From Candidatus Uhrbacteria bacterium (GTDB lineage Bacteria > Patescibacteriota > Patescibacteriia > UBA9934 > UBA10169), in assembly GCA_016187485.1 (NCBI GenBank), contig JACPJO010000005.1, positions 226,385-290,384 of the forward strand: a stretch of 64,000 nucleotides of DNA, given 5' to 3'. The notes under the pieces were generated by a model. The model made no database searches. It was not told the origin of the DNA and saw only the letters and a program-made list of their open reading frames with translations. Within the stretch, counting starts at the first letter, position 1, and the number at the start of each line of letters is the position of its first letter. This document shows, in pieces, positions 1,765 to 61,910 of this stretch. Position numbers and translations under genes: made by a program.

Positions 1765-3002
1765 AGCATTTTGCGAAGAGCCTCACGGATAACGACACGG
1801 TCGTCCCACGGGATCCTTTTCCCGCCGGCAACAACGATAGCCTGTTCGCTTGCTTTTCCCGTCACCAAGACGAGATCGCGCGGTTGTGCAAGTGAGAGAG
1901 CGCGCGCGATAGCCTCACCGCGGTCCAAAATTTTGAGCACCTCCGCCCGTTTCCCCTCTGGCGCAGAGTCAGCTCCGGCAGCAACGTCGTTAATGATCTG
2001 TTCCGGGTCTTCATCGTATGGATCTTCATTTGTCACAATCATCACTTGCGCACGTTGCGCAATGAAAGCACCCACCACGGGACGCTTATCGCGATCACGT
2101 CCGCCGCCCGCCGCGCCGGTAACGTGAATGATGCGATTGTGTGGAATCGTCGTAACAGCTTCGTAGAGTTTGGCGAGCGCGCGCGGCTCGAAGGCGTAAT
2201 CCACAATAACCATGAACGACTGACCTTCATCAATCTGCTCAAGCCGCCCCGGAATACACGTGACCGACTCAATCGCACGTGTGACCTTCGCGCGATCAAA
2301 CCCGAGAACCTCGGCCACCGCGCGGGCAAGTTTTGCATTTATCTGCATGTGAGCGCCGGGAATACGGAGGGCAAGATCGGTCTCCGCACTTGGCCGCACG
2401 ACAACGAGACGATCCACAGGAAAAATCGCGGCTTGCTTTGCTCCATTGTCTTCCCCATTCACCACAATCGCTTTTTCGATACGCTTCCCCGTAATGATCT
2501 TGTGCGGGCACGCACCAAGTTTTTTGAATAGCTTCATTTTTTCCGCACGATAGTTTTCGAAACTTCCGTGAGATTCAATATGCTCTGGATACAAGTTCGT
2601 AAAAACGCAGACATCGTAGTGCACGCCCGCATGTCGGTATTGCTTGATACCTTCCGATGTCGTCTCGATAATCGCGTGTGTGCAATCGGCACTCGCCATC
2701 CCGCGAAGAAGTTTTTGGAGCTGGAACCGGCCAACCATAGTCATTTTTTTGTCATTGAGCCGTTCCTGCTCACCCACCTTGAAAAGAATCGTCGAAGCCA
2801 TACCCACACGTGCGCCGCACGCTTCAAGTGCACGCGCCAAAAGGTAGCACGTCGTCGACTTCCCACTCGTGCCAGTTACGCCGATCACGACCATGCGCTC
2901 CGACGGGCGGCCATAAAGAATCGCCGAAAGAATCGCGAGGACATAATGATACGCACCGATCGCAAATGCCGGCGCCAGCTTGCGCAAAAAACCCTTTATC
3001 AT
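1761..3002 (-). CDS. murE: Mur ligase, UDP-MurNAc-L-Ala-D-Glu:diamino-acid ligase (MurE)
   Basis: P-loop VIGVTGTSGKSTT, Mur ligase middle and C-terminal domains, full-length similarity to MurE; located in the dcw context. Confidence 0.8.
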   Translation of the reverse strand: MIKGFLRKLAPAFAIGAYHYVLAILSAILYGRPSERMVVIGVTGTSGKSTTCYLLARALEACGARVGMASTILFKVGEQERLNDKKMTMVGRFQLQKLLRGMASADCTHAIIETTSEGIKQYRHAGVHYDVCVFTNLYPEHIESHGSFENYRAEKMKLFKKLGACPHKIITGKRIEKAIVVNGEDNGAKQAAIFPVDRLVVVRPSAETDLALRIPGAHMQINAKLARAVAEVLGFDRAKVTRAIESVTCIPGRLEQIDEGQSFMVIVDYAFEPRALAKLYEAVTTIPHNRIIHVTGAAGGGRDRDKRPVVGAFIAQRAQVMIVTNEDPYDEDPEQIINDVAAGADSAPEGKRAEVLKILDRGEAIARALSLAQPRDLVLVTGKASEQAIVVAGGKRIPWDDRVVIREALRKML

Positions 3003-3130
3003 GGAGGTATTCTAGCGTCTTTTGCTAAGCTCCTCAAGCGCCTGCTTCTTTGATCCATTCGCAGAGACACTTGCCCAAACCGCCCGGCAATTCTCGTAAA
3101 AAGACCACTAGCGTTACCTAGACATTTTTT

Positions 3131-3139
3131 TGATATAAT
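3131..3139 (+). promoter_or_regulatory. extended -10 element (TGaTATAAT) ending 9 nt before the ATG of the M23 peptidase gene; transcript is probably leaderless or near-leaderless
   Basis: tgatataat at 3131-3139, ATG at 3149, no Shine-Dalgarno in between. Confidence 0.4.
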
Positions 3140-3148
3140 CCATCCGCT

Positions 3149-3673
3149 ATGTTCTTGGAATTCTTCAGAAGACACAAAAAGTTCTCCTACCCGCTCGACA
3201 TCTCTGACGCACAAACAGGGGAAATGCTTAAGGGATGCGTGCCGAAGGATCAACTGTACAAGACTGGTCCTTTTTACTGTGATCTCAGTCCTAGTTCACA
3301 CAACGGGCCATACCAACGAGCTATCGATTTCATCGTGAAAGACGGGTCCATCGTATACGCCTCAAGAAGCGGACGAGTTGTCGATATGGTAGAAGCACAC
3401 AGCACGTACGGCCCCGGACCAGCATTCGCGGATAAGCTCAACTACATTACGATCGACCACGGTGATTGCCTTAGTCAGTATGGACACCTCCAAAAAGGTT
3501 CCCCGAGCATGTACGGGATACGTGCAGGAAAACAGGTTATGCGAGGCCAAGTAATCGGTATTGTCGGTAAGACTGGTTGGGTAGACTATGGCGAACAAGG
3601 AGATCATCTTCATTTTATGGTTTTTGTAGAAGACAAAAAAGGGTTTCACAGTATTTCTGTTGATTTCATATAA
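3149..3673 (+). CDS. M23 family metallopeptidase (LytM-like)
   Basis: M23 motifs IDHGDCLSQYGHL and GWVDYGEQGDHLHFMVF. Confidence 0.75.
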   Translation: MFLEFFRRHKKFSYPLDISDAQTGEMLKGCVPKDQLYKTGPFYCDLSPSSHNGPYQRAIDFIVKDGSIVYASRSGRVVDMVEAHSTYGPGPAFADKLNYITIDHGDCLSQYGHLQKGSPSMYGIRAGKQVMRGQVIGIVGKTGWVDYGEQGDHLHFMVFVEDKKGFHSISVDFI

Positions 3674-3678
3674 AATCT

Positions 3679-4881
3679 ATGAATACTCCTTCTCCATTTA
3701 TAGGAAAAACGGTCGGCGTTTTTTTTGGAGGAAAAAGTCCGGAACATGACGTTTCTATTATCACTGGGCTTTTGGTTTTAGATGAATTGGCAAAACTTGG
3801 AATCTTAAGTGAGCCGATTTACATAGGAACAGATGGCGCGTGGTGTATGGGTCAGCTGTTACGAGAAAGAAGCTTTCTCCAAGGTATCCATTCTCACGAT
3901 TTATACCCTCTTCAAAGGTGGTCGTTGGATACCCGCCACCGCACACCACGGCTTATTTTGACACGAAGGCCATCTTTTCTCTCACGCCGAGAGCAAAAGA
4001 TCATTGACATTGCCTTCCCCGTGTTCCACGGGGCATACGGTGAGGATGGTTGCTTCCAGGGACTTTGCGAAACTCTAGGCGTGCCCTACGTGGGTTGCGG
4101 CGTTGAGGGAAGCGCCATCGCAATGAATAAGATTCTTACAAAACAGTTTTTTCAGCAGCACGGGGTACAAACCACGCCCTTCGTCGGTTTCTCCGAAGCG
4201 GACTGGAAGTCAGACGCAAACTCCATCAAACGAAGGATCAATGAGACACTGACTTTCCCGGTTTTTGTGAAGCCATCGCATGCGGGCTCGTCTATTGGCA
4301 TTTCACGAGTAAAAAAACTTGAGGCTATAGAGGAGGCAATAGAGGCATCCTTTGAATTTGATACTCATTGCGTTATTGAAAGCGGTATTTCTCCGGTTCG
4401 CGACTTGACATGTTGTGTAAGAGAGTGTGCGAGTAGCTCTCCCAAAGCGTCGCTCGTTCAAGACTCCAGTTTTGGAAAAAGTGAGTTTTTTACGTACAAA
4501 GAGAAATACTTGCAAAGCGACGGCACTCATCTGGACGGAGCAGGAGAAAGTTTCACTATTCCCGCAGAGATACCTGTGGCAACCTCTAAAAATATCCAGG
4601 AGACTTCCGTTGCGATATTTAAAGAGCTCGGCCTCTCGGGAATTTCGCGAGTTGACTTCTTGTATAACCCAGAGACGTCCCAGCTCTATGCAAACGAGAT
4701 CAACCCGATGCCAGGAACACTCTACGAGCATCTGTGGAAGAAGAGTGGTGTCGAACCGAAAGAACTTATTTTAGATTTACTCGATGTTGCGATTCGTAAA
4801 CACACGGAAACCATTAAGAAGAACAAATACTTCCATTCACCGCTCTTATCAGATATGCAAGGACAAAAACTTTCTAAGTAG
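3679..4881 (+). CDS. ddl: D-alanine--D-alanine ligase
   Basis: N-terminal VGVFFGGKSPEHDVSIITG and ATP-grasp motifs (FVKPSHAGSSIGISRV, EINPMPG); Ddl-like over the full length, with one variable insertion. Confidence 0.85.
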   Translation: MNTPSPFIGKTVGVFFGGKSPEHDVSIITGLLVLDELAKLGILSEPIYIGTDGAWCMGQLLRERSFLQGIHSHDLYPLQRWSLDTRHRTPRLILTRRPSFLSRREQKIIDIAFPVFHGAYGEDGCFQGLCETLGVPYVGCGVEGSAIAMNKILTKQFFQQHGVQTTPFVGFSEADWKSDANSIKRRINETLTFPVFVKPSHAGSSIGISRVKKLEAIEEAIEASFEFDTHCVIESGISPVRDLTCCVRECASSSPKASLVQDSSFGKSEFFTYKEKYLQSDGTHLDGAGESFTIPAEIPVATSKNIQETSVAIFKELGLSGISRVDFLYNPETSQLYANEINPMPGTLYEHLWKKSGVEPKELILDLLDVAIRKHTETIKKNKYFHSPLLSDMQGQKLSK

Positions 4882-53537: not shown

Positions 53538-55537
53538 AACGGCTCATCCTCGCCACCCTCTTCCTCGCGCTCCCAACCCTTTTTGTCCACGCCGCGGTAC
53601 AAACCGACCCGGACAAATACGTACGCACGGCAAATTACTTTCTACTCTCGGGCCGCGCGCTCGAAACCCCCGAAGCGAAGGCTACCCTTCCCAAGTTCGA
53701 CCTTCTCATTTTACCGGTAGAAGCGCAGGTCTACAATGCGGCATTTTTTGCGCACGCTCGGCAAATGAATCCCGACATCATTATTTTGGCATACGTCGTC
53801 TCGACAAGCTGGAATAACTTGTACTGGAATGACACACTGCACACGCGCATGCGGCAAGGGATTGCAGATGCATGGTGGCTCACAGACGGAAACGGAAACC
53901 GCACATCAAACTGGCCTGGGCTCACGCTCCTTAATCTCCACAGTGGGTGGACGGACTACTTGGCAAATTTTACCGCCACGCAGATTCTTGCTACAGGGTT
54001 GTGGGACGGTGTGATGTATGACGATGTGGGGGAGGGCATCAGCTCGATTGGGTCAGCTGATGTGAATATGGACGGACGTGCCGACGAGGCAGGGAGCGCC
54101 GATGCTCTGTGGCGCGCGGGGTATGTGCGCCTTGCCGCACGAACGCGCGAATTGGCAGGACCAGGCAAACTCATCCTTACCAACGGTTCTTCACGAACGG
54201 AACTCGCTCCGTATGTGAATGGGCGCATGTTCGAATCGTTCCCGACACCGTGGGAAGGCGATTGGGCGACGGTGACGCGCAAATATGTTGCCGAGGAGAG
54301 TCGTGTGAAGTCGCCGGTTACAAATATTGTCAATGGCGGCACAGATAACACGGGACGGCAGAATGATTATGCAGACATGCGTTACGGGCTTACGACCACC
54401 TTGCTCGGCGGCGGATATTTTGGCTATGACTTCGGCACGACACGCCACAATGATTTGTGGTATTACGACGAATACGACGCGTGGCTGGGCGCGCCAAGCG
54501 AGGGGCGACGCGATCGCATGACGCCGGGCAACACCACTATTAAGCCGAGCGTGTGGGAACGTCGGTTCGAGCGCGGTACCGTAATTGTGAACTCCACGAC
54601 CGAGCGCAAACGCGTTCGGCTGAATGGTGAGTATGAACACTTGCGCGGAACCCAGGATTCCACGGTCAACAGCGGACGCATCGTCTCAAGCGTAGACGTG
54701 AATGCGAAAGACGGGGTGATTCTGCTGCGCACTATCGAAGAAATCATGGACGCCGTATATCAAAATGGATCCTTTGCCCGCGTTTTTCGCGCAGACGGAA
54801 GTGTGAAGCGCAACGGGTTCTTCCCGTTCGATGATCGCGCAAGCGGCGGGGAGCGCGTCATGCGTGTGAATCTTGACAGCGATACCGGCCGCGAGTGGAT
54901 TGTCGCAGGAAATTCGCGCGTAGATCTGTACGACGAAAACGGCAGCAAATATAAAAGCTTCTTCCCCTATACCGAGGCCTACAAACTCGGCGTGAATATT
55001 GCTGTGGGAGATTTGGAAAACGATGGGAGCATGGAAATTGTCACGGGCACTGAGCGGGGCGGCGGCCCACAGATCCGCATCTTTAATAAAGATGGGAACT
55101 TGATCCACCCCGGATTTTTCGCCTACGACAAAGCATTCCGCGGCGGAGTGAACGTGGCTATCGGTGATTTAAACGGGGATGCGATTTCGGAAGTGATTGC
55201 GGGGGCAGGCGTCGGCGGCGGCCCGCATGTGCGCGTCTTTAACAAGGACGGCAAGGTTATCAACCCCGGATTTTTCGCCTACGATCCCGCCTTTCGCGGC
55301 GGCGTCAACGTTGCGTCTGCCGATGTTACGGGAGATGGGATAGATGATATTATTACAGGGCCGGGGAAAGGTGGCGGGCCAGAGGTGCGCGTGTTTGATC
55401 GAAACGGAAAACGTTCGGCCGCCTTCTTTGCCTTCGACAAAAATTCACGTGCGGGCGTAGAGGTCTCCGCCACGGATCTTGATCATGACGGCACCGCAGA
55501 AATTCTTGGATTCAGTGACGAGCCTTTTGCCCCCTAG
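53534..55537 (+). CDS. secreted glycoside-hydrolase-like (TIM-barrel GHL/GH114-type) protein with C-terminal FG-GAP repeats
   Basis: GTG start overlapping the upstream stop (ATGTGA); signal peptide KRLILATLFLALPTLFVHA; GHL-like N-terminal domain; four FG-GAP repeats (VGDLENDGSMEIVTG, IGDLNGDAISEVIAG, ADVTGDGIDDIITG, TDLDHDGTAEILG). Confidence 0.5.
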   Translation: MKRLILATLFLALPTLFVHAAVQTDPDKYVRTANYFLLSGRALETPEAKATLPKFDLLILPVEAQVYNAAFFAHARQMNPDIIILAYVVSTSWNNLYWNDTLHTRMRQGIADAWWLTDGNGNRTSNWPGLTLLNLHSGWTDYLANFTATQILATGLWDGVMYDDVGEGISSIGSADVNMDGRADEAGSADALWRAGYVRLAARTRELAGPGKLILTNGSSRTELAPYVNGRMFESFPTPWEGDWATVTRKYVAEESRVKSPVTNIVNGGTDNTGRQNDYADMRYGLTTTLLGGGYFGYDFGTTRHNDLWYYDEYDAWLGAPSEGRRDRMTPGNTTIKPSVWERRFERGTVIVNSTTERKRVRLNGEYEHLRGTQDSTVNSGRIVSSVDVNAKDGVILLRTIEEIMDAVYQNGSFARVFRADGSVKRNGFFPFDDRASGGERVMRVNLDSDTGREWIVAGNSRVDLYDENGSKYKSFFPYTEAYKLGVNIAVGDLENDGSMEIVTGTERGGGPQIRIFNKDGNLIHPGFFAYDKAFRGGVNVAIGDLNGDAISEVIAGAGVGGGPHVRVFNKDGKVINPGFFAYDPAFRGGVNVASADVTGDGIDDIITGPGKGGGPEVRVFDRNGKRSAAFFAFDKNSRAGVEVSATDLDHDGTAEILGFSDEPFAP

Positions 55538-55541
55538 ACCT

Positions 55542-57395
55542 ATGCCAGAACAGAACATAAAACAAAAAACTCTTGGACTTGCGCGTCACCCGGGCTCATG
55601 GATCACCGCGCCTCTGCATCGCCGCTATCACCGCCACTATCACGGAAAGCACACGTACCCAAAGATCGTCTTTGGCATAGACCTCACCCTGTTTGGCATC
55701 GTGATCGGTACTCTTGCCTCTGCCGCTTTTGTTATTTTTTTTGGTCCGGCGCGCATTATTGACCAAGTAGATTTTACCGCGAGCGTAGCCCCAACAGAGA
55801 TCCGCTCAGGTTCTCCCTCTACCCTCCTCATGGAATGGCAGAACACGTCCAAAGAGGAATTACGCGATGCCAACATTACCTTTCTCTATCCTGATCACTT
55901 CCTGGTACAGAACTTGTACTTCGGGGGTATCGAGACAGACCAACAAACCATCCGTGTGGGAACCATCCCGCCGGGCGGTTCGGGGGCCGTGAAAATCCGC
56001 GGCGTGATGTTTGGAGATGTTGGCGGACAGCAATCGTTCACGACTACACTTTCTGGCCGTTACGGGAAATGGAACCGGCGAGTGCAAAAGTCCGTGACGC
56101 ACGATTTTGTTCCCGGCGCATCGGCTCTTGCTATTTCTGACACACTCCCCGATACCCTTGTATCCGGACAAGACGTGGAGGGTGTCATCATGGTAGCAAA
56201 CACGAGCACGATAGATTTCGGCGCCATCGCTATTCGTTCACGCCGGACAGATTTTGGATTTGTGGCGCACGATGGGGATGTGCGCACACGACAAGAAGAC
56301 GGTACCGTTACATGGATCATTCCCTCCCTCAAAGCGGCGTCGACACGCACTCTTCGTGTCCTGGGTCGCGCCCCAAATCGTACAGAGGAGTCCGTGGAGC
56401 AATGGGGATTCGAAGCCGCCTTCACGTTTGAGAACTCCACGTATGCGCAAGGAAAAACCGTGCACGATTTCCGTCTGATCCCCTCTCCGCTCTCTGCTAA
56501 CCTCGAGGCAGATCATACCTTTTTGAATCCGGGAACGGACTTCTCCGCACACGTGACCTTCAAAAATATCGGCGAGGAGACGCTCGAGAATATCGTGTAT
56601 ATTCTCGAGGCTCGTTCCCCTTTCTTCGCGGCGCGCGACGGAGAGGGCACGGTATACGACCGGGCCAAGAACCGTTGGCGCGTTGAAGCCGATCTCCCGC
56701 GCACGCTTGAGCCTGGAGAGGAAGTCTCCGCTCGCGTGCGTCTGCCCGTTCGGCTCTCCATTCCCGCATCATCGGTACAAACACACGAACGATTAACAGG
56801 CACCGTGCAATCAGGCGCCTCGTTCGCCCTGCGTTCGTCGGGAATTTCTATAGAAGTCCGATCACGCGAGCTTGTCCTTCCTATCACCTCACCCATAGCA
56901 CTCTCCTCATTTGGTCGTTATGCCACAGCGCAAGGTGACCAGCTAGGTCGCGGCCCGCTTCCGCCAAGCGTGGGGGAGGAAACACGTTATTGGGTGTTTT
57001 GGAACATTGCCGGCACCACAAACCCCATCAAGAATATTGTGGTGGAAGGAACGCTCCCGCCGTACGCGCGTTTCACCGGCAAGCAGACAATTTCCGCCGG
57101 GGCACGTGTAGCAAAGGAGGGAGAGTATGTGCGCTGGAAAATTCCAGAACTTGCCCCAAATTTTGCGCCAGGAAGCCCCCGTGCCGGCGCGGCATTCGAG
57201 ATCGGAGTGACGCCAAACGAGGCGCACCTCGGCCGTCCGCTGTCTGTCCTCGATGAAATCACTCTTACTGGCATTGATGCTGTCACGGGAGAAATTGTGC
57301 GCGCTTTCGGCGCCCGCGTAACAACAAACCTGCCTGATGACCCCATGGCGCGCGGGCTTGGCAATGTTATCGCAACCCCCGAGGTTATTTTCTAG
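55542..57395 (+). CDS. hypothetical membrane-anchored beta-rich protein (DUF11-like repeats?)
   Basis: N-terminal TM helix (IVFGIDLTLFGIVIGTLASAAFVIFF) then about 540 aa extracytoplasmic beta-rich region; start placed at MPEQNIK. Confidence 0.4.
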   Translation: MPEQNIKQKTLGLARHPGSWITAPLHRRYHRHYHGKHTYPKIVFGIDLTLFGIVIGTLASAAFVIFFGPARIIDQVDFTASVAPTEIRSGSPSTLLMEWQNTSKEELRDANITFLYPDHFLVQNLYFGGIETDQQTIRVGTIPPGGSGAVKIRGVMFGDVGGQQSFTTTLSGRYGKWNRRVQKSVTHDFVPGASALAISDTLPDTLVSGQDVEGVIMVANTSTIDFGAIAIRSRRTDFGFVAHDGDVRTRQEDGTVTWIIPSLKAASTRTLRVLGRAPNRTEESVEQWGFEAAFTFENSTYAQGKTVHDFRLIPSPLSANLEADHTFLNPGTDFSAHVTFKNIGEETLENIVYILEARSPFFAARDGEGTVYDRAKNRWRVEADLPRTLEPGEEVSARVRLPVRLSIPASSVQTHERLTGTVQSGASFALRSSGISIEVRSRELVLPITSPIALSSFGRYATAQGDQLGRGPLPPSVGEETRYWVFWNIAGTTNPIKNIVVEGTLPPYARFTGKQTISAGARVAKEGEYVRWKIPELAPNFAPGSPRAGAAFEIGVTPNEAHLGRPLSVLDEITLTGIDAVTGEIVRAFGARVTTNLPDDPMARGLGNVIATPEVIF

Positions 57396-58266
57396 CTTTC
57401 CCGTAAACGGGGTCAGGTCTTGAATTTTGAATTTTAGCTAATTCGATAATTTTACTCACCGTGGAGTAATGAAGGTCAAGATACTTTGCAATATCCGTTT
57501 GAGTGTATCTTGCTCGAAAATAGGCCAAAACGATGCCCTTATTGCGATCCGTCTTGTCCCCTATTCTGTAAAAGATCTCCTTAAGGGAAGGGCGACCAAT
57601 CATACGCTCTTCCACCGGGATCTCAATGAGGTCATCCACGTCATGAATGGACTCACGCAACGCGTGTTTAAATTGCAGGTATCCGAGAGGACCATCGGTG
57701 AGTCCAGCATCATCCAAAAACATGCCATCGCTGATAAACTTTTTGTAAAGAATCTGCGCCTGTCGCCTTTTTGTACTGAACTGGGAGAGGAGCCAATTCA
57801 CCGAGAGGCACGGAGGGATAGACACGAGACCAGAGGTTGCCCCATAACTGCTCCACCGCCATTGCTGCGGATACTTCACGACTCGAGCGCGTACGGGGTT
57901 AAGGACAATATATCTTGCCACTTCTAAAAGGTAGGGCTCTTTTTCGATTACGAAAGCTTTATAACGCCCTTCAAATACATGTCCATTTCGTCCGTGAGCC
58001 TTGTTGAAGTGTTGAGAGTAAACACCGTTGAGCTGTTTCATTCCACGCGCAAGGTTTGCTTCACCCGTCTCGACAAGAAGATGGTAGTGATTATCTAACA
58101 GACAATAGGCATGGCAAGACCACTTATAAGACGACACGGTGTCTGCCAGTACACGAAGAAAATCTTTTCTATCTCTTGAACCCAGAAAAATTGGAAGTCG
58201 TGAGTTGCCTCGAGAGATGACGTGGTAAAGCGCTCCCGGATACTCAATCCGAAGTGGACGAGCCAT
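57385..58266 (-). CDS. IS200-like / REP-associated tyrosine transposase (Y1 HUH) with C-terminal DnaA-type HTH
   Basis: HUH motif CHAYCLLDNHYHLLVE and the catalytic Tyr region (WRWSSY) in the N-terminal Y1_Tnp domain; C-terminal GIVLAYFRARYTQTDIAKYLDLHYSTVSKI resembles the DnaA domain IV HTH. Confidence 0.75.
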   Translation of the reverse strand: MARPLRIEYPGALYHVISRGNSRLPIFLGSRDRKDFLRVLADTVSSYKWSCHAYCLLDNHYHLLVETGEANLARGMKQLNGVYSQHFNKAHGRNGHVFEGRYKAFVIEKEPYLLEVARYIVLNPVRARVVKYPQQWRWSSYGATSGLVSIPPCLSVNWLLSQFSTKRRQAQILYKKFISDGMFLDDAGLTDGPLGYLQFKHALRESIHDVDDLIEIPVEERMIGRPSLKEIFYRIGDKTDRNKGIVLAYFRARYTQTDIAKYLDLHYSTVSKIIELAKIQNSRPDPVYGKARK

Positions 58267-58308
58267 AAAGTTGAAAATTCAAAATTCAAGACCTGACCCC
58301 GTTTTGGG
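57400..58308. mobile_element. REPtron-like element: transposase gene bounded by 35-bp inverted repeats (cccgtaaacggggtcaggtcttgaattttgaatttt), each carrying a small hairpin
   Basis: Left IR 57400-57435 and right IR 58274-58308 are reverse complements (31 of 35 nt perfect); the left IR lies within the transposase 3' coding end. Confidence 0.65.
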
Positions 58309-59461
58309 TTTTTTTGAAAATTTCGAGAAGACGGTCTATGTGTTTTTCTGGAGAGAAAACCATCTCTGCACGCAGGCGTGCCGCGCGGCCATATGTTTCG
58401 GCGGACAGAGGATCTTGCAAAAGAATCTCGATGGTCTTCTTCCACGCATCCACATTTCCGGCAGAAACCACACGTCCAGAAACCCCATCTTCTACGACCT
58501 CCGGTAATCCTCCCTGATCGCTCACAAGAACGGCTTTTCCGTGCGCCATTGCTTCAAGAGCTGTAAGGCCAAAGACCTCCGGCCAGAGTGAGGGAACGAT
58601 TACCACAGATGCCGCGAGGTACCACGCCGCCAGTTCTTCCCGCAGAAGCCACCCGGTGACCTCGCAATTTTTTGACGCTGTTCCTTTTATAAAGGGGAGC
58701 AACGGTCCATCGCCAGCAATCACAAACTTTACATCTGGCATGGCACGTGCAAGTTCCACGACAAACCGCGTCCCCTTCTCCTCTACGAGTCGAGAGACGA
58801 ACAACACAGAGCCGTCCCCACGCGACGAGATGGGGACGTTTTTTGTTTCCACAAAATGCGGGAGGTGTACGAGCTTTGTCGGAGCAAACCCAGCTTCGCG
58901 CATCTGCTCAAGAACAAACCGGGACGGGCAAACAAACGTGGCAATACCGCGATCATACAGGCGAAGAAAACGATGCGTATGAAACACGGTCGCCTGTGCC
59001 AGATGCGCAGCAAAAGAGTTTTTGTGAAAGCGCTCATGCGGTGCGCGCCATTGCATGTAATTTGGAGAAAGCATGTGGTAATCATGCACCGTCATCACCG
59101 CAGGAACATGGGCGTCACGAAGCGCGTCCAACACGGACGGAGAGAGCTGCGTGTAAATATTGTGGACATGCGCCACCTCTGCGTGGAACTCGTCCGCAAG
59201 GCGCTTCACGCCGTCACGCGCTTTCCAATTGTAAAGCATGCGACCGAAGGCACGCGCGCCCTCACCGGTGAATTGCGCAGCGTGTGTATCCATCGGCGGA
59301 GCAAAATACTTTGCCCACGGACTTGGCAGGTTATGAGGATCTTGCATCGCAAATGGAGCAACAGCATGCCCGCGCTCTGCAAGAAGCCGGTTTACTTCTA
59401 ACTGATAGCGCGAGGCGCCATCACGATCCCAATAATACTTATGTATGCTGAGGATGTTCAT
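58286..59461 (-). CDS. family 4 glycosyltransferase
   Basis: GT-B fold with EVFGLTALEAMAHGKAVLVSDQGGLPEVV; the last 7 codons and the TGA stop lie inside the right inverted repeat of the transposase element. Confidence 0.75.
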   Translation of the reverse strand: MNILSIHKYYWDRDGASRYQLEVNRLLAERGHAVAPFAMQDPHNLPSPWAKYFAPPMDTHAAQFTGEGARAFGRMLYNWKARDGVKRLADEFHAEVAHVHNIYTQLSPSVLDALRDAHVPAVMTVHDYHMLSPNYMQWRAPHERFHKNSFAAHLAQATVFHTHRFLRLYDRGIATFVCPSRFVLEQMREAGFAPTKLVHLPHFVETKNVPISSRGDGSVLFVSRLVEEKGTRFVVELARAMPDVKFVIAGDGPLLPFIKGTASKNCEVTGWLLREELAAWYLAASVVIVPSLWPEVFGLTALEAMAHGKAVLVSDQGGLPEVVEDGVSGRVVSAGNVDAWKKTIEILLQDPLSAETYGRAARLRAEMVFSPEKHIDRLLEIFKKTQNGVRS

Positions 59462-60939
59462 AAGACACCTTCTTTTCTTCCAAGAACTGTCACAAACCCC
59501 CCATAAAGCCAGAAGTGATATGCCAGAGTTCGGGTTTCAAGAAAGCTCGCCAAGAATGCATGGATGCTCATAGCGACAATGATCCCCATAAACCCGAGCG
59601 CCATGGCACGCGCAAATGGATCGTGCGCACCACGCCACGTACGCGCCGCCAGCGCGCCGAGCGCTGCAAACATCCAGAGATAAAAGATGAGGCCTAAGGT
59701 TCCCGTTTCGCCCCACAAGGATAGCCAGTTGTTATCAATATAGCCTTCCGTTCCACCGACGCCAAACGGGAGTCCAAGCATATCATAGACACGCGTGTTT
59801 CGAAGCGCGAGCACAGCTCCGCCGCCAAACTGCCCGGGGCCGTGGCCGAAAAGCGGCGCTGCCGGGACGACATGCAGCGGCGTATTCACGATCCAAAACA
59901 AGCGGCCGAGTCCGTAATATTCCCCTTGCCAACGCGAGAGAGAAAACGCTTCAAAAAACCGCTCCGCAACTCCCTGCCGCGGCACATCGATAAGACGGCT
60001 AACGACGACTCCAGAAAAAAGTACATACGCGCTTGTGAAAAGAAGAAAAGTGACAAGCGCCACGCGCACGCGCATATCACGCTTGAGGAGAAAACCGATG
60101 AGGAGAAACCCTAAGACAAATCCAAACCAGCCGCTGCGAGAATACGTAAGAACAAGCGCCGGAAGGCCGAGAAGAAAGAGTGCGCGTAATTCAAACCGAT
60201 GGACGAGATGCCGCATTTCATAGAGGATCCCCGCGCCAAGAAGAAGCGCAAACGAAAGAAAGGTCGCAAGACGATCATAGCGGCCAAGAGTGGCAAATAC
60301 GCGCGACCCGGGATCCCAAAACCGGAATGCGTTGGGTGCAAGTGTGAGTTCCCCAAAAAATCTCCCTTCCGAAGGAAAGAGCAGCGTATCGAGCCGCTCG
60401 CCAACAATGGCTTGGAGAATACCGAGTCCGGCTTCCGCAAGAGCAAGCGCCAAGAGAGCTATGGTGAGGCGTTTCATGAACGTGCGCGAGGGGTGAAGGT
60501 AAACTGCGGCAAAATAGACAATGGGAAAACGGAGGATCTGGCGTGCGCCAAGAAGAGCCGTCTCGGGCGGAAGAAGATTAATGACGATAGACGCAAGCAT
60601 CGTGACCAGAAAAAGGGCGAACGGGAGATCAAGCGGAGTACATGTCCGGCGAGAAGATGCAAGAACAGAAACAATGGCAACGCCCGCGACACCGTAGAGC
60701 AAGACTTCAGGAAAAAACCTGGCGTAGACAAAGAGGTGGTCGGGGACAAATTTGAGAACAAACGGCTCAAGAGGAAAATAGAGCGCAAGACCAGCAAGAA
60801 TCCACAGAGGTCGCAAAAGGGCAACACCAAAACACAAGATGCCGATGAGCACAGCGAGCGCGGTTATGGGGGACAAGAAGACGGCAAGAACAATCGTGAG
60901 AGCCGTAGTAAAAATAATCCACAACGCAGGAGCCTTCAT
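59458..60939 (-). CDS. O-antigen ligase/polymerase-like membrane protein (Wzy_C-type)
   Basis: 493 aa, about 12 TM helices with a large external loop; located in the glycosyltransferase context; 4-nt overlaps with both neighbours. Confidence 0.45.
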   Translation of the reverse strand: MKAPALWIIFTTALTIVLAVFLSPITALAVLIGILCFGVALLRPLWILAGLALYFPLEPFVLKFVPDHLFVYARFFPEVLLYGVAGVAIVSVLASSRRTCTPLDLPFALFLVTMLASIVINLLPPETALLGARQILRFPIVYFAAVYLHPSRTFMKRLTIALLALALAEAGLGILQAIVGERLDTLLFPSEGRFFGELTLAPNAFRFWDPGSRVFATLGRYDRLATFLSFALLLGAGILYEMRHLVHRFELRALFLLGLPALVLTYSRSGWFGFVLGFLLIGFLLKRDMRVRVALVTFLLFTSAYVLFSGVVVSRLIDVPRQGVAERFFEAFSLSRWQGEYYGLGRLFWIVNTPLHVVPAAPLFGHGPGQFGGGAVLALRNTRVYDMLGLPFGVGGTEGYIDNNWLSLWGETGTLGLIFYLWMFAALGALAARTWRGAHDPFARAMALGFMGIIVAMSIHAFLASFLETRTLAYHFWLYGGFVTVLGRKEGVL

Positions 60940-61910
60940 AGCGTTTTTTCAAAAGCAATGTTCAAGTACGGAAAGAGCGCGTTAATCGGCACACGACGGC
61001 TCCACGTAGAAAAGCAGATAGCAAGCACAAAAAACATTATACGCAAGAGAAAAACAAGGAGTGCCACTGGACCGCGCTTACGCTCCCCCAGGCGCTTGAA
61101 GTACGCGCGGTACTCTTCAAGCGGGCGGGTCAAAGCTGGTCGCATGTCCTCTGGGAGCAGTCGCCGAATGCCCCACCACGTGCCGCCGACAATACCGTCG
61201 TAGACAAGTTCGTCGTTGGTCTTTTTCCCAAACTCTTCCGGACGGAGTATCCGTGCTGCCTTGCACGCAAGAGTAAGCGGCATCCAGCTTGTAAACGGCA
61301 GACGCGTGGTGTGTCCGTCGTACGGCCAGAGACGATTGGGGGTTTCCGTAATAATAAGAAGGCCGTGCGGTTTTAAAAATGCACAAAGCTGGTGCAGCAG
61401 ACCGCGTCGATCTTTTGGGTGGATATGCTCCACAACCGCACTCATGGTCACGAGATCAAACGATGCACGAGGAAATGGCAGAGTGCCTACATCATGCTCC
61501 CCCACGATGCCCACACGGTCGGCAAGACCTTCATCCCGCAGCCGAAGCCGCGCCGCTTGGCGGTAGAGCGGCATAAGTTCGACAGACGTGACGGCCGCTC
61601 CTTCACGCGCTAAAAAAATCGCGGAGCTCCCGCACCCGCTTCCAAAATCGAGTACAGACTTCCCCGCTACATCCGTCTGGCGCCGGACAAATCCGAGAAA
61701 CTGCTCCTGCACGTACCCCGGGTCGTCAACGCGGAGAATCTCGTCATAGAGATAGTCTCCCTTTGCCGCAAAGAGCGCGTCAAGAGTCCCCTTGCGGTAG
61801 GGGGTGCGGAACGTCACGCCGTCCGTGTGCCAGCGCCCATCAAAAAAAACACGCCCGTGAAGCGTTGCCTCCCGTTCGTCTCCCAGATCTTTCACAAGAA
61901 GATGAGACAT
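60936..61910 (-). CDS. class I SAM-dependent methyltransferase
   Basis: Motif I VLDFGSGCGSSAIFLAREGA and a post-I acidic residue (VTSVELM). Confidence 0.7.
   Translation of the reverse strand: MSHLLVKDLGDEREATLHGRVFFDGRWHTDGVTFRTPYRKGTLDALFAAKGDYLYDEILRVDDPGYVQEQFLGFVRRQTDVAGKSVLDFGSGCGSSAIFLAREGAAVTSVELMPLYRQAARLRLRDEGLADRVGIVGEHDVGTLPFPRASFDLVTMSAVVEHIHPKDRRGLLHQLCAFLKPHGLLIITETPNRLWPYDGHTTRLPFTSWMPLTLACKAARILRPEEFGKKTNDELVYDGIVGGTWWGIRRLLPEDMRPALTRPLEEYRAYFKRLGERKRGPVALLVFLLRIMFFVLAICFSTWSRRVPINALFPYLNIAFEKTL

Follow-up and report, generated by a model that had tools for sequence, protein, structure and literature searches.

The locus that we describe here raises the question whether a transposase-like gene enclosed by inverted repeats is a mobile element, a gene retained by its host, or a part of a system of another kind, and what the repeats themselves are for. 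It lies in a stretch of 64,000 nucleotides from a Candidatus Uhrbacteria genome (hereafter, the window), and a first-pass annotation had described it as a REPtron-like single-gene unit with an IS200-like/RAYT transposase. The layout was found as described: a single-gene cassette of 900 bp (57405–58304, arm to arm) carries a perfect 31-nt arm on either side of one open reading frame. The features needed for the discussion are the following.

57385–58266, minus strand: TIRYT gene (TnpA_REP subclass 2.1 / RAYT group 1), 293 aa; from the ORF list
58081–58089, minus strand: HUH motif codons H60-Y61-H62 within NHYH; read from the sequence, invariance, 4er8 alignment
57910–57912, minus strand: codon of the catalytic Tyr119, in RYIVLNP; invariance, 4er8 alignment, class 2 'Y---NP' signature (PMC6006769 Table 1)
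57424–57555, minus strand: C-terminal helix-turn-helix (HTH), residues ~238–281, three helices; AF2, Pfam, PDB profile, Foldseek
57405–57435, plus strand: inverted-repeat arm at the gene 3' end, inside the ORF; repeat search
58274–58304, minus strand: inverted-repeat arm 5' of the gene; repeat search
58286–59461, minus strand: GT4 glycosyltransferase gene, upstream neighbour; ORF list, neighbour annotation
55479–57395, plus strand: DUF11 surface-protein gene, neighbour; ORF list, neighbour annotation

One flank of the element is occupied by genes of GHL15/FG-GAP and DUF11 proteins, and the opposite one by those of the GT4 glycosyltransferase, a Wzy_C protein and a methyltransferase. The DUF11 gene has its stop codon (57393–57395) at a distance of 9 nt from the left arm, on the outer side, and by its last 11 nt it overlaps the end of the TIRYT ORF in antisense. 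On the other side the GT4 ORF takes its last 5 codons (NGVRS) and its TGA stop from the right arm. The GT4 gene is thus upstream of and codirectional with the TIRYT gene and has its 3' end within the right arm, therefore read-through could transcribe the TIRYT gene.

The 293-aa protein is composed of an N-terminal HUH-Y1 nuclease domain, a helical linker with a WxWSSY motif and a C-terminal HTH. Pfam Y1_Tnp matches residues 13–120 (E 1.5e-12), and the AF2 model (pLDDT 86) has as its top Foldseek match 4er8, the E. coli TnpA_REP, with which it shares the catalytic fold (E 1.4e-7, TM 0.73 on the target). In a PDB profile search H60/H62 pair with HMH, and Y119 with the Y of YIYINP, in 4er8; the same three residues are invariant in all 114 homologs aligned, and a single search returned more than 7,991 homologs of the protein. 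Fold and catalytic residues are intact and conserved, and because the HUH and Tyr residues are invariant, catalytic activity is under selection. The annotation as a RAYT-like Y1/HUH enzyme with its catalytic residues present agrees with the Pfam match, the 4er8 alignment and the invariance, and the annotated fusion to a C-terminal HTH agrees with the three-helix HTH of the AF2 models.

The type of this HTH had to be corrected. It had been called DnaA-type, and we dropped the DnaA domain IV identity: Bac_DnaA_C gave no match at E ≤ 1 in Pfam, DnaA was absent at E ≤ 10 from the PDB profile search, and the DnaA DNA-binding domain 3pvp appeared at rank 42, with E about 1, when the isolated HTH domain was submitted to Foldseek. 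Its nearest folds are instead those of sigma-70 region 4 and of the N-terminal HTH of DeoR. Sigma-70 region 4, DeoR and KorA ranked first in the Foldseek comparison, none of them significant, the DeoR N-terminal HTH 7bhy was the best match of the profile search (E 0.01), and the Pfam match to HTH_23 was weak (E 2.6e-4, below the gathering score). The repeat, according to Quentin et al. (PMC6006769), does not resemble a DnaA box.

The two arms are 100% complementary over 31 nt each; of the 35–36 nt near-perfect repeats reported earlier this part stands, and the outer 5 nt hold 2–3 mismatches. The left arm lies within the 3' coding end of the transposase and encodes ..IQNSRPDPV.., as had been noted and as is seen in the ORF translation. 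It contains the conserved 24-nt core GGGGTCAGGTCTTGAATTTTGAAT at 57409–57432, the right-arm core being at 58277–58300 with its inner edge 8 nt before the ATG, and the GGGG ends of both cores face outward. The start of the repeat, GGGGTCAG, is at 57409–57416 and its reverse complement at 58293–58300. The 64-kb window holds 2 copies of the repeat, and in 0 of 100 shuffles were 2 or more matches obtained. We could not retain the view of these repeats as REPs: an arm is no palindrome, a direct reading of the sequence shows neither GTAG nor CGTC in either arm, and the folding of single arms does not surpass that of shuffled sequence (z −0.63 and +0.11), so that REP identity is ruled out. The small cccg/cggg hairpins described at the arms do exist as stems, but they too are no better than shuffled and are not conserved in relatives, where the flanks of the core carry ~0 bits; they are incidental.

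The arms acquire meaning in comparison with other bacteria. Homologs from Patescibacteria, Gammaproteobacteria and other phyla, 45–52% identical, have the same 24-nt block at their flanks. Its core, GGGGTCAGGTCTTGAATYTTGAAT, hardly varies over many phyla, whereas protein identity is only ~50%; core positions hold 1.8–2 bits each, and the conserved block stops sharply at GGGG. Across the family the ORF crosses the 3' arm in three different frames, and in 8 cases out of 13 a TGA inside this arm serves as the stop codon. It is the DNA of the motif that is conserved, and not a coding sequence. It might be supposed that the inverted repeat is incidental, being a terminator pair, a device for mRNA-stabilising 5'/3' pairing, or chance, and indeed a terminator-like hairpin on the plus strand, with a T run after it, overlaps the right arm at its outer edge. 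This is highly improbable. Single arms are without significant structure, Rfam gave no match, and in 8 relatives the pattern TTGAAT-N16-18-TAnnnT-N6-8-ATG puts the transcription start at the ATG, which would leave the upstream arm outside the mRNA. By the shuffles, the homolog flanks across phyla and the information content of the core, the incidental explanation is effectively refuted.

Beyond the gene the motif has a life of its own. The 23-mer occurs in at least 120 genome tiles spanning many phyla, and among the matches listed there are 210 motif copies, 135 of them orphans, 31 gene-associated and 44 at tile edges. Gene-less copies in other genomes are single, tandem, or arranged as head-to-head hairpin doublets. 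Close pairs have their GGGG ends outward in 30 cases and inward in 1. Near-identical doublets of 57 nt stand at 4 unrelated sites within one genome; the 57-nt doublet folds with −31.6 kcal/mol (z −11.8), and head-to-head doublets give 27-bp hairpins. No target-site duplication was found at the ends of the elements compared.

By its sequence the element is assigned to a known class, which has received three names: TIRtron, with its gene TIRYT (Di Nocera, De Gregorio & Rocco 2013, BMC Genomics 14:522, PMC3733652), TnpA_REP subclass 2.1 (Quentin, Siguier, Chandler & Fichant 2018, PMC6006769), and RAYT group 1 (Bertels, Gallie & Rainey 2017, PMC5581495), which equals subclass 2.1. With TIRtrons it shares a RAYT-like Y1 gene between terminal inverted repeats which are not REPs, a repeat start that fits the published main TIR tag GGGGWSAS (8 nt, PMC3733652), a 3' repeat overlapping the gene end, and the occurrence of the repeats also as single copies, dimers and groups in some genomes. 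There is no essential difference, apart from the origin of this copy in a Candidatus Uhrbacteria genome (CPR/Patescibacteria). The TIRtron paper gives the 8-nt tag only, whereas the conserved block here is of 24 nt. What is new is the near-invariance of the core across phyla, the 3' arm read in three frames, and the mostly gene-less copies elsewhere.

The assignment to subclass 2.1 is made on signatures. The published signatures are NH[YF]H, FQ (or W[EQ]), Y[IV]xLNP and a proximal SS (PMC6006769 Table 1), and the window protein has N59-H-Y-H62, F98-E99, Y119-IVLNP and W138-S-S140, with FE in place of the FQ that at least 90% of its relatives have. The C-terminal HTH extension of the subclass is of Bac_DnaA_C, HTH_23 or HTH_28 type (PMC6006769); the protein has a three-helix HTH with the weak HTH_23 match, and the Bac_DnaA_C form was not seen. 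It also shares with the subclass an absence of any REP beside the gene, low copy number and a wide taxonomic range.

Three better-known systems have to be compared. Like the REPtron of the E. coli TnpA_REP (4er8; Corneloup 2021, PMC8266576), the element has a lone gene with its cognate repeat on both sides in inverted orientation, and gene-less repeat copies are dispersed, which for the 24-nt motif was seen in other genomes only. A REP, however, consists of one imperfect palindrome with GTAG in front of it, and the 24-nt motif is non-palindromic and without GTAG; the TIRYT protein is also ~130 aa longer, has the HTH, and does not reach the cut-off of the NCBIfam REP_Tyr_transpos equivalog NF047646 (72.9 bits vs 80). 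With flanks lacking GTAG/CGTC and a hairpin, and with this score, a strict REPtron/RAYT identity was rejected. REPIN-RAYT systems (Bertels & Rainey 2011, PMC3116915) resemble ours in head-to-head doublets with long hairpins, in near-identical doublets at unrelated sites, and in the associated low-copy Y1 gene. They differ in that REPINs consist of two REP palindromes, are lineage-specific and vertically inherited, while the 24-nt motif is common to phyla, and in that movement has been observed for REPINs and not for the 24-nt motif. IS200/IS605 elements (IS608 and ISDra2 TnpA) share the HUH/Y1 fold (Foldseek E about 1e-5) and lack of target-site duplication, and single-strand chemistry would be expected for both. 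Their TnpA, in contrast, is of ~130–150 aa with a Y..Q motif and without HTH; they end in subterminal hairpins, not in inverted repeats, and are multicopy and frequent on plasmids. The Y---NP motif, the inverted-repeat ends and the one copy in the window speak against membership in this group.

Nevertheless, the 900-bp unit might still be an autonomous insertion sequence that transposes as a whole, with the repeats as classical IS ends and a recent copy in the window. Boundaries are sharp, with arms perfect over 31 nt; GC is 45–49% inside the element vs 54–59% in the flanks; relatives have other genes at this junction, namely those of DMRL synthase and an ATP-grasp protein; the gene is patchily distributed across phyla; and the missing target-site duplication fits HUH chemistry. 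The low GC and the different genes at the junction suggest that the element was acquired. An exact empty site was not found in relatives, since the closest homolog of a neighbour gene is only 49% identical. We consider a whole-unit IS unlikely all the same. There is one copy in 64 kb, the upstream neighbours of the identical proteins P0032 and P0070 are unchanged in every sample examined and do not represent many contexts, and the gene is nearly absent from plasmids and phages, with 1 full-length match among 72,556 plasmids and none in phages. It is not the gene that is found dispersed but the motif without it. To our knowledge, the known Y1 enzymes (IS200/IS605) act by cutting single strands, and none of them employs terminal repeats in double-stranded form. 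For subclass 2.1 a mean of ~1.9 gene copies in a genome is reported, and these copies show little identity to one another (PMC6006769). The gene acts as a low-copy chromosomal resident, unlike a proliferating IS.

Such residence might point to a domesticated and immobile gene, serving the host by DNA binding or nicking (in regulation or at replication forks), with the arms only as autoregulatory operators. Its low copy number, chromosomal location and stable position would fit, as would an HTH typical of regulators, and RAYTs in general have been argued to be domesticated (Bertels 2017, PMC5581495). The promoter pattern of the relatives also belongs here, as its −35 box overlaps the upstream arm. 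An operator role leaves unexplained the downstream arm, which is equally conserved, inverted, and placed in the ORF end in three frames; it explains neither the near-identical doublets at unrelated sites nor the 30:1 orientation bias of close pairs, and the invariant HUH and Tyr point to selected catalysis. We therefore regard a purely domesticated role as improbable.

We propose, with a moderate degree of confidence, that the locus works as a TIRtron in which an HUH/Y1 single-strand DNA nuclease-ligase with an HTH is placed between two inverted, presumed recognition blocks of 24 nt. On single-stranded DNA, for example on the lagging-strand template, the inverted arms would pair as a stem, a doublet giving a hairpin and the whole cassette a panhandle; when the whole element is folded as single-stranded DNA, a terminal stem closes it. 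The double-stranded stem, with its two TYTTGAA direct repeats, may be read by the HTH, and the HUH/Tyr centre would nick and rejoin the same strand at the stem base, beside GGGG and CCCC, by analogy with IS608 TnpA and with RAYT on REPINs. In this manner the enzyme could act in trans on motif units that lack the gene, moving or copying them. In relatives the upstream arm would double as the −35 box (TTGAAT) of a leaderless-mRNA promoter, and binding of the enzyme to it would therefore repress its own gene. In the window copy no promoter-like site was found between the right arm and the ATG, the −10 element being missing, and read-through from the glycan operon probably accounts for the transcription of this copy. 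Against the proposal, single and tandem motif copies cannot make such a hairpin, and with 2 motif copies in 64 kb the targets of the enzyme here may be its own flanks alone. The papers on TIRtrons and TnpA_REP that we consulted report no experiment, biochemical or genetic, on a TIRYT.

We may even suggest, as a doubtful possibility, that TIRYT and the 24-nt motif constitute a pan-bacterial REPIN-like system, in which a non-palindromic module would function only when paired with an inverted copy, the HTH reading the double-stranded stem and the HUH centre cutting its base. Its cis sequence has remained near-invariant over many phyla, with CPR bacteria, Acidobacteriota, Bacillota, Actinomycetota and Proteobacteria among them, in contrast to the lineage-specific classical REPs. 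A double-strand reader (HTH) joined to a single-strand nuclease (HUH) suggests a substrate choice unlike that of IS608 and of the E. coli RAYT.

For this window little is at stake, as it adds one more copy to a very large family named in 2013, whose members are already labelled "transposase" or "RayT" in genome annotations. The class is worth attention for its presumed recognition motif, unusually well conserved across phyla, and it can be tested, as Rheinheimera marina, Dokdonella immobilis and a Legionella adelaidensis plasmid carry the motif or the gene. The motif pair may also occasionally bracket other genes, for instance an epimerase gene in L053.

The element in the window is very probably a TIRtron, the name given by Di Nocera et al. 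2013 (PMC3733652) to RAYT-like genes lying between terminal inverted repeats, whose proteins were called TIRYTs, and it is an ordinary, intact member of this already described class. What the first-pass annotation observed is real, and its interpretation is largely correct. The chief remaining interest lies in the 24-nt motif that forms the core of the repeat, near-invariant across phyla, and in the abundant gene-less copies of this motif in other genomes. The features of the locus are the following.

57385..58266, minus strand: TIRYT ORF of 293 aa, the sole long ORF of the region
57405-57435 and 58274-58304: inverted repeat, arms of 31 nt, 100% complementary

The protein had been described as a RAYT-like Y1 transposase with HUH motif and catalytic tyrosine, and the alignment bears this out: H60 and H62 (HUH) and Y119 show no variation among 114 sequences, and the family profile pairs them with the HMH and with the tyrosine of YIYINP in the REP-associated Y1 transposase (TnpA_REP) of E. 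coli, PDB 4er8. Pfam Y1_Tnp matches residues 13-120 (E 1.5e-12), and the NCBIfam model of REP-associated tyrosine transposases gives 72.9 bits, slightly below its cut-off of 80. Single-sequence phmmer with the window protein found no match in the PDB, whereas profile and fold searches did; the closest fold to its AlphaFold model (pLDDT 86) is 4er8 (E 1.4e-7, TM-score 0.73 on the target), followed by the ISDra2, IS608 and IS200 transposases. Homologs number at least 7,991 (7,991 of 8,000 scored candidates at the threshold of E 0.001), measure about 280-290 aa with about 50% identity to the window protein, and come from Patescibacteria, Bipolaricaulota, Nitrospirota, Binatia, Proteobacteria and others; a database entry identical to the window protein carries the name "transposase [Candidatus Uhrbacteria bacterium]".

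Of the DnaA domain IV-like HTH proposed for the C-terminus, the HTH stands and the DnaA assignment does not. Modelled alone, the C-terminal 79 residues form a three-helix HTH (pLDDT 79), whose top fold matches, none of them significant, are sigma-70 region 4, the DeoR/SorC N-terminal HTH and KorA; since these come ahead of the DnaA DNA-binding domain, at rank 42 with E ~1, and Bac_DnaA_C has no Pfam match in the window protein, the HTH is not specifically of DnaA type. HTH_23 scores below the Pfam threshold. The protein lacks the features that define DnaA domain IV, and the idea of a DnaA box is ruled out by Pfam, by the PDB profile search and by the fold search of the HTH, as well as by Quentin et al. 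2018 (PMC6006769).

The latter authors placed 20 of 26 TIRYTs in TnpA_REP subclass 2.1, equated by them with Bertels' RAYT group 1, with the signatures NH[YF]H, FQ, Y[IV]xLNP and an SS motif, a C-terminal Bac_DnaA_C, HTH_23 or HTH_28-like domain, REP absent nearby, and about 1.9 copies per genome (Quentin 2018, PMC6006769). All signatures are present in the window protein, with FE replacing FQ. The window repeat begins GGGGTCAG, to be compared with GGGGWSAS, the common tag of TIRtron repeats, which in some genomes are also found alone, as dimers or in groups (Di Nocera 2013, PMC3733652). It is not the palindromic, GTAG-tagged REP that defines a strict REPtron, and the element does not show the features defining IS200/IS605 elements. 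In the literature searched we found no experiments on any TIRYT.

The inverted repeats reported to bracket the gene are perfect over 31 nt and present in exactly two copies in the window, two or more matches being obtained in 0 of 100 shuffles; a looser search of the window gave one further match with 3 mismatches, at chance level. The arms had been drawn as 35-36 nt, of which the inner 31 nt hold, while only two of the five outer positions added do pair. The small cccg/cggg hairpins ascribed to them are neither significant nor conserved, the secondary structure of single arms being not significant (z -0.63 and +0.11); when the whole element is folded as single-stranded DNA, a terminal stem closes the fold. 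An Rfam E-value search of 57200-58500 returned only a chance-level sRNA match (E 0.1). As was noted at first, the left arm lies within the 3' end of the ORF, coding ..IQNSRPDPV..; the inner edge of the right arm is 8 nt ahead of the TIRYT ATG. The window ORF misses the TGA within the arm, the usual stop of the family, and continues for 15 codons, and its end (57385-57395) lies antisense to the final 11 nt of the DUF11 ORF that converges on it.

The same flanking repeat is found at homolog loci of unrelated organisms, e.g. L001, L002, L041, L082, L095, L116 and L117 (L numbers denote the homolog loci or genome tiles compared). In 212 copies taken together, conservation is confined to the block GGGGTCAGGTCTTGAATYTTGAAT(T), with about 1.8-2 bits at most core positions and about zero on either side. 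The 3' arm is read by ORFs in three frames, ..SRFKT* (stop at the TGA within the arm, 8 of 13 loci), ..KIQDLTPNV* and, in the window, ..IQNSRPDPV.., so that what is conserved is the DNA itself and no mere consequence of coding. A rival explanation, by which the repeat is incidental to the gene, is very unlikely. A more distant homolog on the Legionella adelaidensis plasmid NZ_LR134433.1 (L138:1378-2373, 41.5% identical, annotated 'transposase') is flanked by the diverged repeat GGAGGGTCAGGCCTTGCCTTTTG with the 3' arm again over the ORF end, which would suggest joint divergence of repeat and protein. No paper turned up in a full-text literature search for 14-mers of the motif.

End-to-end complementarity stops at GGGG or at most 5 nt past it, and no target-site duplication was seen at the element ends compared. 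Three of the eight clean pairs stay complementary for 3-5 nt past GGGG, more than by chance, with nucleotides differing per element:

window 57405-57408 / 58301-58304: AAAC
L001:2958-2960: TCC
L053:2747-2751: ATGAT

Dispersion of the repeat, suggested as a check at first reading, proved positive for the family in other genomes, while the window itself has only the two flanking copies. A 23-mer scan, with one genome per species, gave at least 120 tiles, the window's own genome being absent among those listed; represented there are Acidobacteriota, Uhrbacteria, Clostridia/Bacillota, Actinomycetota, Alpha-, Beta- and Gammaproteobacteria, Thermodesulfobacteriota, Elusimicrobia, Omnitrophota, Nitrospirota, Planctomycetia, Methylomirabilota, Poribacteria and others. 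The 210 motif copies listed (at most 4 mismatches) comprise 135 orphans, that is, copies with no adjacent TIRYT gene, 31 adjoining such a gene and 44 at tile edges. Among the close pairs listed, the GGGG ends point outward in 30 and inward in 1, and 32 are tandem. A motif scan of viral contigs gave 0 matches. In bacterium MF1_201704_bin_1079 near-identical 57-nt doublets, two motif copies head-to-head, occupy four unrelated sites:

L035:215-271
L058:433-489
L065:7396-7452
L101:10-66

As single-stranded DNA the doublet forms a 27-bp hairpin (-31.6 kcal/mol, z -11.8), and these units behave like REPINs (paired-REP hairpin units) or MITEs. The L101 copy has one mismatch, the 5-nt loop occurs in either orientation, and the flanks are always T...A. 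In Candidatus Uhrbacteria LJ-3-15m_bin-0684 an outward-GGGG pair (L053:2752-3733) surrounds a 308-aa NAD-dependent epimerase-like ORF (2782..3708, minus strand) with no TIRYT gene between; the pair may carry this ORF as cargo, or may simply be two orphan copies lying in neighbouring intergenic gaps.

One may suppose instead that the element is an autonomous IS, moving whole. Two homologs that each recur as identical proteins on many contigs, P0032 and P0070, have unchanged upstream neighbours, and for P0070 these are RHH-PIN genes wherever upstream sequence is present (10 places listed of 24 contigs), a pattern that gives no hint of spread in the manner of an IS. Among 72,556 plasmids one carries a full-length TIRYT homolog, and phage genomes none. 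By its behaviour the gene is a low-copy chromosomal resident. The window copy looks acquired, as GC is 45-49% within the element versus 54-59% in the flanks, and the nearest syntenic relatives have DMRL synthase and ATP-grasp genes at this junction (GHL15, DUF11 / GT4, Wzy_C) instead. The exact empty site was not found: the adjacent DUF11 protein shares 49% identity with its best homolog, so that synteny can be compared only loosely.

The model that fits the anatomy best, which we put forward tentatively and at slightly short of an even chance, has four steps. The two inverted arms would pair on single-stranded DNA; the HTH would read the double-stranded stem, with its two direct repeats of TYTTGAA; the HUH/Tyr centre would nick and rejoin the same strand at the stem base, beside GGGG and CCCC; and hairpin units would be excised or copied without target duplication, in the manner of IS608 TnpA and of RAYT acting on REPINs. 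Such a model would explain why GGGG ends mostly point outward, why the ends are sharp and target duplication is absent, and why a duplex reader is fused to a single-strand nuclease. Single and tandem motif copies fall outside it, and it does not explain the 3-5 extra outer nucleotides that three of the eight clean pairs share.

The upstream arm has also to be considered in respect of expression. In most relatives it lies 14-30 nt ahead of the ATG, with a promoter-like geometry of TTGAAT (within the arm), 16-18 nt, TAnnnT, 6-8 nt and ATG:

L083:969-1026, L029, L093, L057, L104, L095, L115, L081: promoter-like geometry upstream of TIRYT genes

L083 has TTGAAT-N17-TATAAT-N8-ATG, while L001, L002 and L041 have instead an extended -10, TGATATAAT (TGATATACT in L001). 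In relatives this geometry would imply a leaderless mRNA with its -35 box within the arm, in which case the enzyme, on binding the arm, would repress the gene that encodes it. According to a further rival explanation the gene is domesticated and immobile, with arms that are merely operators. An RNA panhandle is ruled out by the promoter geometry, the upstream arm lying outside the transcript in relatives. The window copy, 8 nt from arm to ATG, has no such TAnnnT hexamer; being downstream of the GT4-Wzy_C-methyltransferase genes and codirectional, it would likeliest be expressed by read-through transcription from them.

The element does sit, as first described, at the junction of a surface-protein block (GHL15/FG-GAP and DUF11) and a glycan locus (GT4, Wzy_C, methyltransferase). 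The final five codons (NGVRS) and TGA stop of the GT4 glycosyltransferase ORF are supplied by the right arm (58286-58303), so the insertion probably replaced or capped the native 3' end of that gene. An 88-aa GIY-YIG nuclease-domain ORF adjoins, convergently, the TIRYT cassette of L001 (3845-4111), and a similar small GIY-YIG ORF lies in L127 (8358-8600), two genes downstream of a DUF11 homolog; this is probably coincidence. The very high plus-strand AT skew of window 59800-61000 (0.37-0.51) coincides with the minus-strand Wzy_C membrane-protein gene and is likely a product of the T-rich codons that hydrophobic residues use, not a separate feature.
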